From the IMG/VR virus record IMGVR_UViG_2724679239_000008: a stretch of DNA of 38,640 bases. One strand, written 5' to 3'. The notes below the pieces were generated by a model, which had not been told where the DNA came from, ran no database searches, and worked only from the letters and a program-made list of their open reading frames with translations. A program made the translations under genes and the position numbers. The first letter of the stretch is position 1. The number at the start of each line of letters is the position of its first letter. Source of the DNA: a virus. Its lineage: Duplodnaviria > Heunggongvirae > Uroviricota > Caudoviricetes. Positions 22,869-37,088 of the stretch are shown piece after piece.

Positions 22869-23042
22869 TCATTCCCGAACCACCTTGAAACCGAGCCTTT
22901 CCAGGTATTCAATGAACGCCTCGATAGATAAAATCACATGATCATCAGGAATTAACGTTGTGTAGATAACGTCTCCATTCTCAACGCGCACAGCATAGAG
23001 GCCATTTTCACTAAAAATTTCACGCAATTCTTCGATTTTCAT
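22869..23042 (-). CDS. small hypothetical protein (57 aa), below the ORF-track cutoff
   Basis: hand translation MKIEELREIFSENGLYAVRVENGDVIYTTLIPDDHVILSIEAFIEYLERLGFKVVRE; GGAAGGA 8 nt upstream of ATG. Confidence 0.35.
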   Translation of the reverse strand: MKIEELREIFSENGLYAVRVENGDVIYTTLIPDDHVILSIEAFIEYLERLGFKVVRE

Positions 23043-23188
23043 CTTCAGAATCCTTCCAGATAAATAGCTCTTCCCTTCTCAGGGTCCATCCCTCTTATCC
23101 CTGCGCGCTACTTAAGTGCATCGATTCTAGTCAGGCATACCCGCTTATCAACAAACGAAGGTCGGTTTAATGGAGGAGTCGGCTAAAA

Positions 23189-23214
23189 CTTGATCTGTAA
23201 AAGTAAAAAACCCG
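23189..23214 (-). terminator. rho-independent terminator downstream of hok
   Basis: minus-sense CCCGC-UUCG-GCGGG followed by UUUUUUACUUUU. Confidence 0.55.
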
Positions 23215-23294
23215 CCGAAGCGGGTTAGGTGCGGGTGCGTTGAGGATGCCTGACTCATCAGAGGTGGCGAGGGATTTCTCCCTCGCCTGGTCTC

Positions 23295-23450
23295 TTACTC
23301 CTCAGGTTCGTAAGCTGTGAAGACAGCGACCTCCGTCTGACCGGTTCGGATTCGTACCTCGCAGAGGTCTTTCCTCGTTACCAGTGCCGTAACAATGACG
23401 GTTAAACAGATGACGATCAGGGCGACTAACATCGCCTTTTGCTGCTTCAT
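23295..23450 (-). CDS. hok: Hok-family type I toxin
   Basis: MKQQKAMLVALIVICLTVIVTALVTRKDLCEVRIRTGQTEVAVFTAYEPEE matches Hok/Gef family pattern; AGGAG RBS 9 nt upstream. Confidence 0.8.
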   Translation of the reverse strand: MKQQKAMLVALIVICLTVIVTALVTRKDLCEVRIRTGQTEVAVFTAYEPEE

Positions 23451-23507
23451 AGCCTGCTTCTCCTTGCCTTTCGGCACGTAAGAGGCTAACCTACATGTGT
23501 TCAGCAT
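23295..23507 (-). CDS. mok: Mok-like in-frame N-terminally extended reading frame
   Basis: in-frame ATG 19 codons upstream (MLNTCRLASYVPKGKEKQA...), same arrangement I recall for mokC/hokC. Confidence 0.45.
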   Translation of the reverse strand: MLNTCRLASYVPKGKEKQAMKQQKAMLVALIVICLTVIVTALVTRKDLCEVRIRTGQTEVAVFTAYEPEE

Positions 23508-23575
23508 GGATTGAGCCTCAGATTAATGTTAAGCGTCCTGCAAGACGCGTAATGTTAACTGGGGCTTTTCTCTAT
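23500..23575 (+). ncRNA. sok: possible Sok-like antisense RNA (inferred, boundaries approximate)
   Basis: plus-strand TTGCCT (23464-23469), 17-nt spacer, TAACCT (23487-23492) opposite the mok start; imperfect hairpin 23529-23556; by analogy with hok/sok loci. Confidence 0.25.
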
Positions 23576-23877
23576 CTGCCTTTTGGTGTTCATGCCTGAG
23601 ACAGATAGCCTCAAGCACCCGCAGCGATTTTTACTTAACTCTTCTTTTCACGCAAACCGTTTTTATCCTCAACGTAAATTTTACCAATATCGCCTAACAC
23701 ATCTCCCCTGCCCTGACGATGCTTACCTCTTTACACAGCCCCCTATTTATGTATTATCTTTTACAAACAACCAGTTAAGAGCTATCGGTGGGTGAGTTCG
23801 CCCTGCGGTAGCTTTTCCTTTATACATTGCATCTATTTATGTTCTAGTATATTCCTATATGTTCAAAAGGACTTTTC

Positions 23878-24810
23878 ATGCACAGCGTTAATTTCTATTC
23901 ATTCCGCGTATTGACCCATAAAGGCAGTCGAGCCAGCAAAAAGCTTAATGAATTGGGTTTAAGTAATAAAAAAACGGCATATGAACTTTTTGTTGATTAT
24001 TTTACTCTATATAAAAACACCCCCATCGAGTTTGGCGTATCCAAAACTAAAATATCTCTAGAACAACACGCTAAACTTCACTTTGATAACACAAAGAAAA
24101 TTATATATGGTTATATAAAAGTTGGGAAATATGGAGAAAGTAGTGAAATAAAGGATGTAAAACTCAAAAAAATCCACTACAGGACAACTGCTTATGATGT
24201 AACACTCAAAGAACGTTATATTTTAATATACCTACCAGACACCCTTGAAGAAGGAATTATTGCATTCCATTCTTGCGATAATATTTCTGCTCGAGGTGTC
24301 CTTTCTGATTCTATCACTGAATATCTAAAAAACAAATTTCAACTCGAAGCAAGAATCAATCCATTACATCATAAGAAAATCCCTCAATATATTCTCAATT
24401 CCGAATTAAAACAAATTAAGGCTCAAGGATATAAAGCACCAAAAGACATTGCTGATTCCTTTGGTCAAAACAAAACAAACATCAAGACAGACTTAATAAT
24501 AAAAGCAAACGATGGCATGTTCGGAAGTTTCAGGGATTTAAGAAACAAGAATATAGGAAACATCATTGAGATTATTGAAGATAAATGTGATGCAATAAAA
24601 GTAAGCTTACAGCTCGGCAGTCGGACTGTCGTTTTCAATTATGATACCATACTAAAAAAAGGAATTTCCGCAGAGTTAGATGATAATGATCTAAAAATCG
24701 ACCCATTAACAGGCATACCTGATCTAACAGCACTTCATGACACGATAAAAAACCTTTCTAATGATATATTGTTAGAACTGCATAGCGGAAACAAAGGGGT
24801 GATCATATGA
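23878..24810 (+). CDS. hypothetical soluble protein, first gene of AT-rich two-gene operon (candidate sensor of a Rex-like module)
   Basis: 310-aa ORF, clearly lower GC than flanks, AAGGA RBS; ATGA overlap with downstream gene. Confidence 0.6.
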   Translation: MHSVNFYSFRVLTHKGSRASKKLNELGLSNKKTAYELFVDYFTLYKNTPIEFGVSKTKISLEQHAKLHFDNTKKIIYGYIKVGKYGESSEIKDVKLKKIHYRTTAYDVTLKERYILIYLPDTLEEGIIAFHSCDNISARGVLSDSITEYLKNKFQLEARINPLHHKKIPQYILNSELKQIKAQGYKAPKDIADSFGQNKTNIKTDLIIKANDGMFGSFRDLRNKNIGNIIEIIEDKCDAIKVSLQLGSRTVVFNYDTILKKGISAELDDNDLKIDPLTGIPDLTALHDTIKNLSNDILLELHSGNKGVII

Positions 24811-25361
24811 ATAAAATAAATGTGCTGGGTGTAATAATAAAACACTACAAAACAATGTCAGATCAGCGTGGAACAATGTTGATGAGCGACATTATCGTAC
24901 ATTTTATTGTTCCGCTATCTCTTTCTTTCGTTCTGTGCTGGACATACGGAATAATGAAACCGGCAATTGCTTCCGTCTTCGTTAACTTCGGGGCTATTAC
25001 AACAGCACTATTAATGAGTGCAGTAATAATGATTTATGAACAAAAACAAAAAACCATTACTAAGATATCAGACATAATTGAAGGACACAAATCCCGAGAC
25101 AAATTGATATCATTAAACACTAACAAAACCATATATGAGCAGTTATGCCACAACGTCGCTTATGCAATATTAACTTCAATAGTATTGGTTATATTTTCAG
25201 TGATAATATATTTCCTGCCTGACAATGCAGTGGATTTAATGAAATGGTATTTTCGCGCACCTGCATATATTGTTAGCTTTTTAGCCTATACATCCTTTTT
25301 TATCACTGTTATAACGTTCTTAATGGTAATCAAAAGGTTTAGCACAATTTTAGATAATTGA
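24807..25361 (+). CDS. hypothetical membrane protein with four predicted TM helices (candidate effector)
   Basis: 184-aa ORF, four hydrophobic segments of about 20 aa each, translationally coupled to upstream gene. Confidence 0.6.
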   Translation: MNKINVLGVIIKHYKTMSDQRGTMLMSDIIVHFIVPLSLSFVLCWTYGIMKPAIASVFVNFGAITTALLMSAVIMIYEQKQKTITKISDIIEGHKSRDKLISLNTNKTIYEQLCHNVAYAILTSIVLVIFSVIIYFLPDNAVDLMKWYFRAPAYIVSFLAYTSFFITVITFLMVIKRFSTILDN

Positions 25362-25806: not shown

Positions 25807-26056
25807 TTCTGTTCTCCCACGTTTTCAGACTTTCACCACAGAACGGGCAAAAACACATTGCAACACCACGACCGATATATTGCCCAGAGTGAATTTGAGC
25901 AATATCTATGCCTGACTCGCCGGTGTTTATGTTCACACGTTCCGGGATAAATATGCCTTTACTCTTGAATGTTGGATTTCCATATTCGAGAGATTTTGCC
26001 AAAGCCGCGCACGGTTCTATCTTGTTGCCATTAACCTGACATTTTGATGCGTTCAC
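25793..26056 (-). CDS. hypothetical protein with C-terminal zinc-ribbon-like CFCPFCG
   Basis: start reassigned to GTG 26056 with AGGAGG upstream and GTGA overlap with upstream stop. Confidence 0.4.
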   Translation of the reverse strand: MNASKCQVNGNKIEPCAALAKSLEYGNPTFKSKGIFIPERVNINTGESGIDIAQIHSGQYIGRGVAMCFCPFCGESLKTWENRNERN

Positions 26057-26469
26057 AGTACCACCTCCTGAAAATTTCCCTGATAGAAATCCAGTACACG
26101 CTGCATAGCTTCGCTCTGACGGCACTCGCGACAAATTATGTTCTGTCGTCTGTTGTAACAGCGTATTTCACCATCCGGCAATGAATAAATCAGCTCGGGG
26201 TCTCTCTTCTTTTTCGCTGTACCTTTCGACATCTCTTTACGGGCCTTTATCCAGTCCTTGCGCGCCTGCTCCGAAGGAAATATCCCGTGCCCCGAACCAT
26301 ATACTATGCCACTGCCCACCAGCTCTTTCGCCAGAACTTCTATCAGGTGTCTCGTTGCTCCGGTTTCATCTTCCAGTTGCTTACGCGTTTTCCTCCCGTC
26401 TCTGCGCACCAGTTCCACAATACGCGCCTTCAGTTGCTCCCGATATTCAGGTGTAAAAACGTTTCTCAT
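26053..26469 (-). CDS. hypothetical winged-helix-like protein
   Basis: start at ATG 26469 (MRNVFTPEY) with GTGAGG upstream. Confidence 0.45.
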   Translation of the reverse strand: MRNVFTPEYREQLKARIVELVRRDGRKTRKQLEDETGATRHLIEVLAKELVGSGIVYGSGHGIFPSEQARKDWIKARKEMSKGTAKKKRDPELIYSLPDGEIRCYNRRQNIICRECRQSEAMQRVLDFYQGNFQEVVL

Positions 26470-26476
26470 AAGCGCC

Positions 26477-27238
26477 TCACTTTTCCAACACAACGCGACT
26501 GGTGGAATCGACAATCTGTCGGACAATATCCCGGTGTTTATTCAGTTCCCGCAGTGCTGCGCAGACGCGCTCCCACTTCTGGACATGATTTTTCGCCCGG
26601 CGCAGTTCGCGGTTTGCCAGATGCAGCGATGGTAAAATCAGGTCATCCACCCGCGTTTCGGTGAACGATGGCAGCGACTGCACAATGTCCGCCACAGTTC
26701 CTGTTTTAATTTCTTCCTGTATTGCAGCTTCCTGTGCTGGTAACGCAACACCTGCTGGCTGAGGAAAGGCTTTACCATCAGTTTCCGTTACCAATGCAGC
26801 TTTCGGCTCTGCTGGTAAATTATCGTCCGGCATGCAGTAACGAAATTTACCGTTCTGATTTACGCGAATCAGGCGACCTTTGCTGATTGCCTGAGCCAAC
26901 GTTGAAGCCACTTTGCGTGATGTGATACCGAACAGCGTAGCCAGCTCATCAGCCGTTTGTGGTCCGCGTTGTTCAATCGTCGCGGTTAAATCGCACTCTG
27001 AGATTTTCGCTACTGTTGCCGTGGTAGTTTCTTCATAAAATTCAGCCCGGGATGCTTGTTCCTGCTGAGCATTGCTACCAGCCACACGCCAGGTGTACGC
27101 GGTTTTATCAACGAAACCAGATTTTTTCAGTTCCCACAGCTCATTCAGTACCTCTTCACGACTGATATCAAGTCGCGCAGCAAGTTCTATGGACGTGGCC
27201 TTTCCCATCGCTTTCAGTGCGTCAAAAACAGTCTCCAT
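26477..27238 (-). CDS. hypothetical early-region protein (ydaW/DUF1627-like)
   Basis: start at ATG 27238 (METVFDALK) with GGGAGG upstream; downstream of DnaC-like gene as in Rac. Confidence 0.45.
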
Positions 27239-36697: not shown

Positions 36698-36907
36698 ATG
36701 AGAGAAAAGACAATGCGATATGAAAAAGTTAAGCCATGTCCGTTTTGTGGTTGTCCATCTGTAACAGTGAAAGCCATTTCAGGGTATTACCGGGCAAAAT
36801 GCAACGGCTGTGAATCCCGAACTGGCTATGGTGGAAGTGAGAAAGAAGCCCTCGAAAGATGGAATAAACGAACCGCTGAAAATATTAATGGAGGCATCTA
36901 TGTATAA
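36698..36907 (+). CDS. lar: Lar/RalR-like restriction alleviation protein (start may be ATG 36713)
   Basis: MRYEKVKPCPFCGCPSVTVKAISGYYRAKCNGCESRTGYGGSEKEALERWNKR zinc-ribbon; position after recombination genes. Confidence 0.55.
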   Translation: MREKTMRYEKVKPCPFCGCPSVTVKAISGYYRAKCNGCESRTGYGGSEKEALERWNKRTAENINGGIYV

Positions 36908-37088
36908 AATTACCGCCACAATTGAAAAGGAAGGTGGTACTCCTACTAACTGGACAAGATATTCAAAATCTAAACTAACGAAATCAGAATGCGAAAAAAT
37001 GCTCTCAGGGAAAAAAGAAGCAGGCGTTTCCAGAGAGCAAAAAGTAAAACTGATGAATTTTAATTGCGAGAAACTTCAGTCCTGGTAA
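36900..37088 (+). CDS. small hypothetical protein (62 aa)
   Basis: ATG 36900 with GGAGG upstream (MYKITATIEKEGGTPTNW...); track ORF 36810..37088 probably starts too early. Confidence 0.4.
   Translation: MYKITATIEKEGGTPTNWTRYSKSKLTKSECEKMLSGKKEAGVSREQKVKLMNFNCEKLQSW

Follow-up and report, generated by a model that had tools for sequence, protein, structure and literature searches.

A hok/mok/sok toxin–antitoxin locus of the hokD/hokW subtype in the nin-equivalent region of a Rac-like lambdoid prophage

The window analyzed here, a stretch of 38,640 nucleotides of caudoviral DNA (IMG/VR record IMGVR_UViG_2724679239_000008), contains a short open reading frame that a first-pass annotation had assigned to the Hok family of type I toxins; the same annotation noted an in-frame Mok-like extension, a 3' UTR hairpin, an intrinsic terminator and candidate promoter elements for an antisense Sok RNA. 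The question raised by this locus is whether it is a complete toxin–antitoxin module or the remnant of one, and what role it may have in a prophage. The core of the first reading was upheld, as Pfam comparison, RNA folding and the search for a Sok homologue were all positive. In our view, positions 23205..23655 (minus strand) very probably make up a type I toxin–antitoxin module, hok/mok/sok, that is complete and belongs to the hokD/hokW subtype. The module lies in the nin-equivalent part of a lambdoid prophage resembling Rac, and its mode of action is probably that of hok/sok of plasmid R1 and hokW-sokW of Sp5. The unit is of an already known kind: its family, mechanism and occurrence in lambdoid prophages are well documented.

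Identity and extent of the locus

The Hok peptide matched Pfam PF01848 (HOK_GEF) along the entire profile (positions 1-42 of 42) with 83.6 bits and an E value of 7.2e-24, the cut-off being 22 bits. Retrieval by a family model had been proposed as a check of the initial reading, and the coordinates originally given for a 51-residue Hok were exact. PHROG 251 ('MokW-like host killing') was also matched (E 7e-33). The peptide fits the family pattern, made of an N-terminal hydrophobic helix and the residues C..T...TR(K/Q).L.E..R...EV, and carries all nine columns that are invariant across HokW/C/B, R1-type and P1-type proteins (C15, T17, T25, R26, L29, E31, R35, E40 and V41). With the subfamily model NCBIfam NF007279 ('type I TA system Hok family toxin') it scored 49.1 bits (E 3.8e-13), below the cut-off of 73; this shortfall bears on that single HMM and not on membership of the Hok family. 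A PDB sequence search with Hok gave nothing meaningful, and PADLOC returned no match for Hok or its neighbors. As a side observation, close relatives of the peptide are named HokD in RefSeq records despite the NF007279 shortfall of the window protein.

The exact Hok peptide is present in 6905 blocks of a public collection. An exact 70-mer over the I9V codon found no match in species-representative genomes; hence, the exact nucleotide variant is absent from that set, though the exact peptide is very common.

The hok and mok frames are both uninterrupted, and the in-frame Mok-like extension of the first annotation was recovered as an open reading frame that shares its stop codon with hok (Table 1). 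Residues 1-28 of Mok are identical to those of MokW of phage 933W, and the in-frame architecture is that of K-12 mokC. The core of the hok Shine-Dalgarno (SD) sequence, CAAGGA, is invariant in 48 aligned loci. As an overlapping upstream frame with its own SD, mok is predicted to be the frame through which hok translation is driven.

At the RNA level, Rfam RF01794 matched 23620..23445 (minus strand, mRNA sense) over the full model (1-157) with 118.9 bits and an E value of 1e-26, the gathering score being 59. The locus shows 93-97% nucleotide identity to hundreds of annotated hokD/hokW loci, and PGAP names the related E. coli hokD copies 'type I toxin-antitoxin system toxin HokD'. The combination of hok, mok and sok features is far beyond chance.

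Table 1. Features of the hok/mok/sok unit (window coordinates; mRNA positions are counted from the predicted 5' end)
Feature	Position	Strand	Description	Basis
Putative hok promoter	23627..23655	-	-35 TTGCGT 23655..23650; -10 region TAAAAAT 23633..23627	Read from sequence
Predicted full-length hok mRNA	23205..23620	-	416 nt	5' end, RF01794 model position 1; 3' end, terminator
tac (translational activator element)	23609..23620	-	GGGUGCUUGAGG; mRNA 5' end	Folding and conservation
5' leader hairpin	23572..23608	-	mRNA 13-22 with 40-49	Present in MFE
ucb (anti-SD box)	23559..23567	-	AAGCCCCAG; mRNA 54-62	Folding
mok Shine-Dalgarno	23516..23519	-	GAGG; mRNA 102-105; 8 nt upstream of mok AUG	Seen in sequence
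mok ORF	23295..23507	-	70 aa; ATG at 23507; in frame with hok, common stop codon	ORF list
Candidate dcb (downstream complementary box)	23482..23487	-	AGCCUC; mRNA 134-139; perfect 6-nt complement of mok SD stretch GAGGCU	Seen in sequence
hok Shine-Dalgarno	23460..23465	-	AAGGAG; 9 nt upstream of hok AUG	Seen in sequence
hok ORF	23295..23450	-	51-aa membrane toxin, MKQQKAMLVALIVICLTVIVTALVTRKDLCEVRIRTGQTEVAVFTAYEPEE	Pfam and PHROG matches
3' UTR hairpin	23266..23287	-	Perfect 9-bp GGCGAGGGA-GAAA-TCCCTCGCC; predicted terminal stem-loop of processed (truncated) mRNA	
fbi (fold-back inhibitory element)	23233..23245	-	CCUCAACGCACCC	Pairs with tac
Intrinsic terminator	23205..23226	-	7-bp stem AACCCGC-TTCG-GCGGGTT at 23226..23209, TTCG loop, T run ending at 23205	
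Sok promoter	23464..23492	+	-35 TTGCCT 23464..23469, 17-nt spacer, -10 TAACCT 23487..23492	Same sequence upstream of 933W sokW
Sok antisense RNA	23499..23569	+	71 nt	Positional homologue of annotated sokW of 933W

Homology blocks shared with other prophages stop at about 23641 and 23205, matching the transcription unit. The terminator is the only terminator-like site in 23050..23950, and its hairpin forms in the minimum free energy (MFE) structure. A strong intrinsic terminator had been placed at 23189..23214: the terminator exists, but those coordinates take in only its 3' arm and tail. Likewise, the span first assigned to the locus (23189-23575) does contain the toxin locus but stops short of the hok promoter and of 45 nt at the mRNA 5' end, where tac lies. 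The -10 region of this promoter is some 7 nt before the predicted +1 (23620), and aligns with TAGAAT of 933W and E. coli hokD loci, with an extra A in the window. A consensus promoter scan picked up neither the hok nor the Sok promoter, and neither is a good match to the sigma-70 consensus; both were placed by homology.

RNA elements and the predicted switch

The full-length hok mRNA has a predicted MFE of -167.3 kcal/mol (z = -7.1 against shuffled sequences), and in this fold tac (mRNA 1-12) pairs with fbi (376-388) through 12 pairs with probabilities of 0.97-1.0. The long-range 5'/3' pairing that the first-pass annotation had suggested looking for is thus present in the folded mRNA. The tac/fbi duplex reaches -21.5 kcal/mol, compared with -14.7 for shuffled 3' UTRs (z = -3.1; 1 of 200 shuffles was as good). 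The tac motif is conserved in 49 loci, and compensatory variants of tac and fbi are found in the hokB, Enterobacter and R1 groups. Conservation of the pairing was judged by per-sequence duplex energies with shuffled controls; a column-wise pair count in a 48-sequence alignment gave only 64% of cells paired, because MAFFT shifts the R1-type rows by one base.

The first 30 nt of the mRNA form a hairpin of -16.9 kcal/mol upon folding, and the 5' leader hairpin is 92% paired over 48 hok loci, with 5 of its 10 pairs changed on both sides. The ucb element, which was assigned after PMC9841398 as was the candidate dcb, has an invariant GCCCC core (alignment A4). In the complete RNA, ucb (55-62) is predicted to bind the mok SD region (100-107), with probabilities of 0.84-0.99. 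If the RNA is shortened to exclude fbi, the MFE state instead joins tac (1-8) to ucb (54-60), but with a probability of only 0.14-0.58. The mok SD is masked in the complete RNA but free in the MFE structures of RNAs that stop at position 375 or 372. Hence, the predicted full-length and 3'-shortened folds reproduce the switch published for hok of plasmid R1. A stem between the mok SD and the candidate dcb was not formed in MFE folds; a dcb inside the Sok promoter has also been described for R1 (PMC9841398).

Downstream of hok, the perfect 9-bp stem with a GAAA loop of the initial annotation does exist, about 10 nt away from the coordinates initially given (23256..23277). Its position is conserved across 48 hok loci, with 78% pairing and 6 of 9 pairs changed on both sides. 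Hairpins of this kind occur nine times in the window (seven distinct), compared with 0.8 expected in Markov shuffles; therefore, the weight of the 3' UTR hairpin comes from position and conservation rather than rarity. In R1, the equivalent stem-loop shields the truncated mRNA from 3'-5' exonucleases (PMC9841398). An isrK identity for the hok 3' UTR was considered and discarded: the Rfam match was below threshold (31 bits, cut-off 50) and was judged to be a generic two-hairpin-plus-terminator resemblance, and a distant search in phages found no Gifsy-type link.

On the opposite strand, the antisense RNA that the earlier reading anticipated was found as a Sok homologue that shares 68 of 71 bases with SokW of 933W/Sp5; no difference falls in the promoter region or the 5' tail. 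It folds into a single-stranded 5' tail of 13-14 nt, a long hairpin and a U run (-28.9 kcal/mol, z = -4.3), and can base-pair with the mok SD and start codon. Judged from its sequence and fold, this stretch would specify a cis-encoded antisense RNA with its own promoter and complementarity to the mok start region, as expected of a Sok. Promoter elements had been proposed on the plus strand opposite the mok start; a promoter is indeed found on that strand, but it lies just inside mok, and it is the Sok transcript itself that covers the mok start. A mutation in the sokW promoter abolished antitoxin activity (PMC8621323).

Assembled on the R1 model, these elements would operate as follows. A weak promoter would yield a stable hok mRNA of about 416 nt, whose nascent 5' end would fold as a metastable hairpin. 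Once the mRNA is complete, tac would pair with the 3' fbi and ucb would mask the mok ribosome-binding site, so that the full-length RNA would be neither translated nor bound by Sok. Slow 3' trimming to the 9-bp GAAA hairpin would remove fbi, allowing tac to move to ucb and the mok ribosome-binding site to open; ribosomes entering at mok would continue into hok, which is in the same frame in the window. In healthy lysogens, the short-lived 71-nt Sok, produced constitutively from the opposite strand, would pair over the mok start region, block translation and mark the duplex for RNase III. If the Sok supply ended, because the element is lost or the prophage induced, Hok would be made from the stored mRNA, insert in the inner membrane and depolarize or kill the cell.

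Comparison with known hok loci

Whereas homology, RNA elements and the predicted structural switch were established on the window locus itself, we infer its transcription, RNA processing, toxicity and biological role from relatives. The hokW-mokW-sokW locus of Stx2 phage 933W and Sakai prophage Sp5 (AF125520; Takada et al. 2021, PMC8621323) shows 93.5-93.6% nucleotide identity over the unit. HokW, 90% identical to the window Hok, has been shown experimentally to be toxic and to be neutralized by Sok (PMC8621323). The two proteins share 46 of 51 residues, differing by four C-terminal substitutions and at position 9 (V rather than I). In both loci mok is in frame with hok, Sok is 71 nt long, and tac and fbi are identical; the three differences between SokW and the window Sok are all in the apical loop. 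However, 933W lacks the CCCGC-TTCG-GCGGG terminator sequence found in the window, and its locus lies outside the nin region, towards the right end of the genome.

Intact hokD copies, with 93-97% nucleotide identity to the window locus, are found in lambdoid prophages of many E. coli strains, and E. coli hokD occupies the same position as in the window, upstream of DUF1367-YbcO-Q-like genes. K-12 HokD (RelF) matches the window Hok in 50 of 51 residues (I9V). For hokC (gef)/mokC/sokC of the E. coli chromosome, 42 of 50 Hok residues match, mok is likewise in frame, and the sokC 5' tail GUUCAGCAU and the hokC tac are identical to those of the window; however, SokC is shorter (59 nt annotated), as is its hairpin. 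In K-12, IS186 lies 20 bp past the hokC stop codon, and a predicted hokC fbi was discarded as it fell inside this IS186.

The R1 (parB) locus has a like set and order of elements (tac, ucb, mok SD, Sok target, dcb, hok, 3' stem-loop, fbi and terminator), an mRNA of similar length (about 400 nt) and a like predicted switch between full-length and truncated forms, and the R1 model fits the window element by element (PMC9841398). Divergence is nonetheless considerable: identity between the window Hok and R1-type relatives is only 35-37%, the tac/fbi pair is GGCGCUUGAGGC / GCCUGAAGCGCC in R1 and GGGUGCUUGAGG / CCUCAACGCACCC in the window, the Sok hairpin is longer in the window, and the setting is a plasmid in one case and a prophage in the other.

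Integrity, biological role and neighborhood

Many chromosomal hok loci are inactivated, and the window locus could in principle be a decayed, non-functional remnant like most K-12 chromosomal copies. An example is hokD of prophage Qin, which has lost the leader, the mok start and sok: it is homologous to the window only from 23464 downstream (23464..23206), retains only the SD, the open reading frame and the 3' UTR, lacks tac, ucb, the mok start and Sok, and is fused downstream of relBE. The 1-nt insertion by which the hok -10 region of the window differs from its relatives might be viewed as a first sign of decay. We consider this highly improbable: none of the regulatory elements is missing or damaged in the window copy, the hok and mok frames are uninterrupted, Sok and its promoter are essentially identical to those of functional sokW, and no insertion sequence adjoins the locus. 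If the module is functional, as its intactness suggests, the question is then what its main role may be. The role described for hokW-sokW, namely assistance to lysis and phage release once the prophage is induced, is quite possible. When hokW-sokW is absent, Sp5 needs about 40 min longer to lyse and its phage release is halved, and SokW disappears after induction in a RecA-dependent manner (PMC8621323). The window has hok in the same orientation as the YdaS-YdaT-replication-Q early operon, whereas Sok is made in the opposite direction; here, Sok might be lost by collision with early-right read-through. Such a collision mechanism is, however, pure inference, for 933W/Sp5 as well, where the locus lies elsewhere in the genome.

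Prophage stabilization and phage exclusion had been the roles first suggested; both appear weaker, as the role demonstrated in the closest studied relative is help with lysis and phage release after induction, and not stabilization or exclusion (PMC8621323). A stronger version of the exclusion proposal would make abortive infection the main role of a functional module, within one defense island formed with the adjacent AT-rich two-gene operon at 23878..25361. T4 exclusion is indeed on record, with a reduction of 42% in plating efficiency, but only for R1 hok/sok on a high-copy plasmid (cited in PMC8621323); in addition, a Ren-like exclusion gene is nearby, and the slot between the DUF977 gene and hok has the variable, low-GC cargo typical of accessory genes. 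This cargo is, however, unrelated in different prophages, and the stretches shared with other prophages end precisely where the hok unit does. Thus, hok recombines as its own module of about 440 bp, independently of the AT-rich operon, and such independence weakens the accessory island that had been proposed. Furthermore, the proteins of the AT-rich operon match no PADLOC, Pfam, NCBIfam or PDB entry and no defense family, and the measured effect of hokW-sokW is faster lysis with a two-fold higher phage yield after induction, not defense (PMC8621323). An exclusion island is therefore quite unlikely.

A broader speculation, rather unlikely, is that the hok/sok unit marks the constant right-hand edge of a nin-region recombination hotspot of Rac/lambdoid prophages, where unrelated low-GC cargo operons, possibly for defense, are swapped. 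As hok points the same way as the early-right operon, antitermination after induction might also let transcription run through the unit and shut down the opposing Sok promoter by collision. If so, read-through would explain the loss of SokW upon induction and tie the release of Hok to the lytic switch.

The locus implies no new biology. Its practical value lies in annotation: automated pipelines usually omit Sok RNA genes and mok frames, and this full and, as far as its sequence indicates, probably active type I toxin–antitoxin unit includes both. The unit is also a precisely bounded landmark beside a variable cargo slot, and may aid in the assessment of the adjacent AT-rich operon.

The hok unit and its antisense RNA

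Read from its sequence, the minus strand at 23205..23655 is a textbook hok locus. The first-pass annotation had proposed a hok/mok toxin locus here; the observation is confirmed with corrections to its coordinates, and the interpretation as a hok-type locus is supported. The Pfam HOK_GEF model retrieves the 51-aa peptide assigned to the Hok family, matching along its entire length (83.6 bits, cut-off 22, E 7.2e-24), and PHROG 251, 'MokW-like host killing', is matched as well (E 7e-33). Relative to K-12 HokD the peptide carries the change I9V, and it differs at five positions from HokW, the toxin of the closest studied relative (hokW-mokW-sokW of phage 933W and prophage Sp5). The in-frame Mok-like extension that had been described is also present.

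Features of the hok unit and its surroundings
Feature	Coordinates	Strand	Remarks
RF01794 match	23620..23445	-	hok mRNA leader up to the hok AUG
ucb (anti-SD box)	23567..23559	-	AAGCCCCAG
mok Shine-Dalgarno	23519..23516	-	GAGG
mok ORF	ATG at 23507	-	70 aa; frame and stop codon common to hok
hok ORF	23450..23295	-	51 aa
3' hairpin	23266..23287		perfect 9-bp stem, GAAA loop; 3' UTR of hok mRNA
fbi (fold-back inhibitory element)	23245..23233	-	CCUCAACGCACCC
Terminator	23226..23209, T run to 23205	-	7-bp stem, TTCG loop
isrK-like match	23205..23286	-	hok 3' UTR; sub-threshold
Sok RNA	23499..23569	+	placed by alignment to annotated sokW of 933W
Promoter-like site	23730..23757		at the AT-rich operon
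AT-rich operon	23878..25361	+	two genes (310 and 184 aa), divergent from hok
PHROG 142/DUF977 ORF	26053..26526	-	~2.4 kb upstream of the hok unit
Promoter-like site	23151..23124		TTGATA-16-TAGAAT; precedes the 57-aa ORF
57-aa ORF	22869..23042	-	PHROG 340 (unknown function); just downstream of the hok terminator
RalR/RalA pair	36698..36907 and 36906..37084	+ and -	type I toxin–antitoxin pair

In an Rfam scan of the whole window, two matches exceeded the gathering score, RF01794, 'sok' (118.9 bits, cut-off 59, full model covered), among them. This match is to the minus strand and reaches as far as the start codon of hok, and what the model captures is therefore the leader of the hok mRNA. Despite its Rfam name, 'sok antitoxin', RF01794 matches the sense strand of that mRNA, and automatic annotation based on it would misplace the Sok gene in both strand and extent.

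The antisense element suspected on the plus strand turned out to be a sokW homologue that covers both the mok start codon and the mok Shine-Dalgarno (SD) sequence. Compared with sokW it has 3 differences in 71 positions, which all fall in the apical portion of the hairpin. Its 5' tail and the 35 nt upstream, with a -35 TTGCCT, a 17-nt spacer and a -10 TAACCT, are identical to 933W. The predicted fold (-28.9 kcal/mol, z = -4.3) has a single-stranded tail of 13-14 nt followed by a long hairpin and a U run, a shape shared with SokC and SokB of K-12. Neither the Sok nor the hok promoter passes a consensus promoter scan; their placement is based on homology.

Predicted states of the hok mRNA

Placing +1 at the first position of the Rfam model and the 3' end at the terminator gives a predicted mRNA of 416 nt; the span ending at 23575 that had been annotated leaves out its first 45 nt and the promoter. 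The RNA folds with -167.3 kcal/mol (z = -7.1 against dinucleotide shuffles). In the full-length fold, the long-range 5'/3' pairing anticipated by the first-pass annotation is found: the first 12 nt, GGGUGCUUGAGG (tac, the 5'-end element), pair with fbi at a probability of 0.97-1.0, and ucb pairs with the mok SD region at 0.84-0.99. When the RNA is cut upstream of fbi, tac pairs with ucb in the MFE state, a pairing with a probability of only 0.14-0.58. In folds ending at mRNA positions 375 and 372, the MFE leaves the mok SD unpaired. The first 30 nt alone, a nascent-RNA fold, form a hairpin of -16.9 kcal/mol. The states known for hok mRNA of plasmid R1 are a metastable 5' hairpin, a closed full-length form in which tac pairs with fbi and ucb masks the SD, and a truncated form that is open and has a tac/ucb stem (PMC9841398); the folds predicted here follow the same sequence of states. 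A stem between the mok SD and dcb (the downstream complementary box) is absent from our folds despite a perfect 6-nt complement at 23487..23482.

The 9-bp GAAA hairpin reported earlier does exist, although it had been placed ten bases off (23256..23277). Perfect 9-bp hairpins are not rare in the window (9 hits, 0.8 expected), so that its weight comes from position and conservation: it sits where R1 carries the last stem-loop, which guards the truncated RNA against 3'-5' exonucleases (PMC9841398). The terminator is also real, but the range 23189..23214 takes in its 3' half only. The hok 3' UTR additionally resembles isrK, a Salmonella Gifsy-1 sRNA, over the full model length (31.2 bits, cut-off 50), which probably reflects merely a common hairpin-spacer-terminator layout.

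Conservation across the hok family

The comparison included 70 loci with Hok relatives from species-representative genomes, plus K-12, plasmid and phage copies. Among the distinct loci listed (49 with a recognisable tac), the 5' 13-mer has a partner 42-58 nt past the stop codon in all but one, an IS186-flanked hokC copy. The tac/fbi duplexes have a median energy of -21.5 kcal/mol, compared with -14.7 for shuffled 3' UTRs (median z = -3.5). The window itself has a z of -3.1, with 1 of 200 shuffles equally good. Between subfamilies, tac and fbi vary together through compensatory changes.

Paired elements by subfamily
Subfamily	tac	fbi
hokD/hokW (window)	GGGUGCUUGAGG	CCUCAACGCACCC
hokB	GGGUGCCUGAGA	UCUCAUGGCACCC
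hokB variant	GGGCGCCUGAGA	UCUCAUGGCGCCC
R1 type	GGCGCUUGAGGC	GCCUGAAGCGCC

In a 48-sequence alignment, the cells paired and the pairs with changes on both sides were 92% and 5/10 for the 5' hairpin, 84% and 1/6 for the ucb/SD helix, 78% and 6/9 for the 3' hairpin, and 64% and 1/12 for tac/fbi, where the 64% is spoiled because R1-type rows are one base out of register.

It is accepted that mok works by being translated and not via its product. The window, 933W and hokC have mok in frame 0 relative to hok; in hokB, a Klebsiella F-type plasmid and a hokD-type copy on a P1-like plasmid that is 87% identical to the window (L009, p160070-MCR), it is in frame +1. In the last of these, one extra base between dcb and the hok SD (cf. 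window 23460..23480) shifts the frame. The C-terminal sequence of Mok is evidently not conserved, and the frame switch fits an action through translation.

Elements of this kind are already known, and this one has their usual host range and position. Of 5426 complete E. coli genomes, 4935 have a match to the 551-bp region, and in 2227 of these a single match covers at least 80% of the query; among the matches listed, identity is 90-96% and nearly all are annotated hokD. The region also matches 1478 plasmids and 109 phage records (best, phage Evi, 97.1%), and the exact peptide is recorded in 6905 blocks of a public collection. In contrast to this intact form, K-12 hokD is a 5'-truncated remnant behind relBE, whose homology to the window is confined to the part downstream of 23464. 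Hok loci of enterobacterial type were also seen on short contigs labelled as Veillonella, Acinetobacter, Xanthomonas, Streptomyces, Ferruginibacter, Oscillibacter, Dysgonomonas and Vagococcus (L025, L033, L038, L040-L042, L061, L072). In some of them, Hok is 93-98% identical to the query; contamination or mis-binned plasmid or phage DNA is the most likely source.

Genomic setting and role

The proposal that hok and the neighbouring AT-rich operon make up a small accessory island finds little support here. In pairwise comparisons with eight other prophages, the hok homology block ends at ~23641-23674 and ~23204-23213, and these limits coincide with those of the transcription unit. Between DUF977 and hok lies a slot whose cargo is unrelated from one prophage to another; hok and the genes on both sides are conserved (L001, L002, L010-L015 compared). 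Besides the 310/184-aa pair of the window, the slot contains a 376/104/172-aa trio, a 140/231-aa pair, a 257-aa protein with a faint esterase match, DUF551 fragments or IS1; it resembles a hotspot for the recombination of accessory genes. The window cargo has a GC content of 0.31-0.36, against about 0.50 nearby. Its proteins match PHROGs 15676 and 15250 over their full length, both of unknown function; searches of Pfam, PADLOC, NCBIfam and PDB sequences gave no match for them. In E. coli F9792, this pair of genes also adjoins hokD (97.7% nucleotide identity). Hence, hok adjoins a variable slot and is tied to no particular cargo.

Beyond the AT-rich operon, an ORF matches PHROG 142, 'Ren-like exclusion protein' (E 3e-39), and Pfam DUF977. 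Another type I pair of this prophage adjoins the integrase, as in prophage Rac: RalR (NCBIfam equivalog, 150 bits, cut-off 113) and the antisense sRNA RalA (Rfam RF02694, 209 bits, cut-off 170).

We are highly confident that the molecular mechanism of the locus is the classical hok/sok one. In Sp5, HokW expression arrests growth, SokW made from its own promoter prevents the arrest, and a sokW promoter mutation abolishes protection, with RNase III and Hfq contributing partially (PMC8621323). The loss of SokW upon mitomycin C treatment depends on RecA, and HokW is present in the inner membrane ~1 h ahead of endolysin; deletion of hokW-sokW delays lysis by ~40 min and halves phage yield (PMC8621323). 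As to defence, R1 hok/sok on a high-copy plasmid lowers T4 plating (cited in PMC8621323). Here, hok is co-directional with a Rac-type early-right operon (YdaS, YdaT, IstB-like loader, DUF1627, DUF977, hok, DUF1367, YbcO, Q-like antiterminator). Sok is transcribed against this operon, and read-through after induction could therefore hinder Sok synthesis. The locus probably serves post-segregational killing or assists lysis; dedicated defence is the less likely role.
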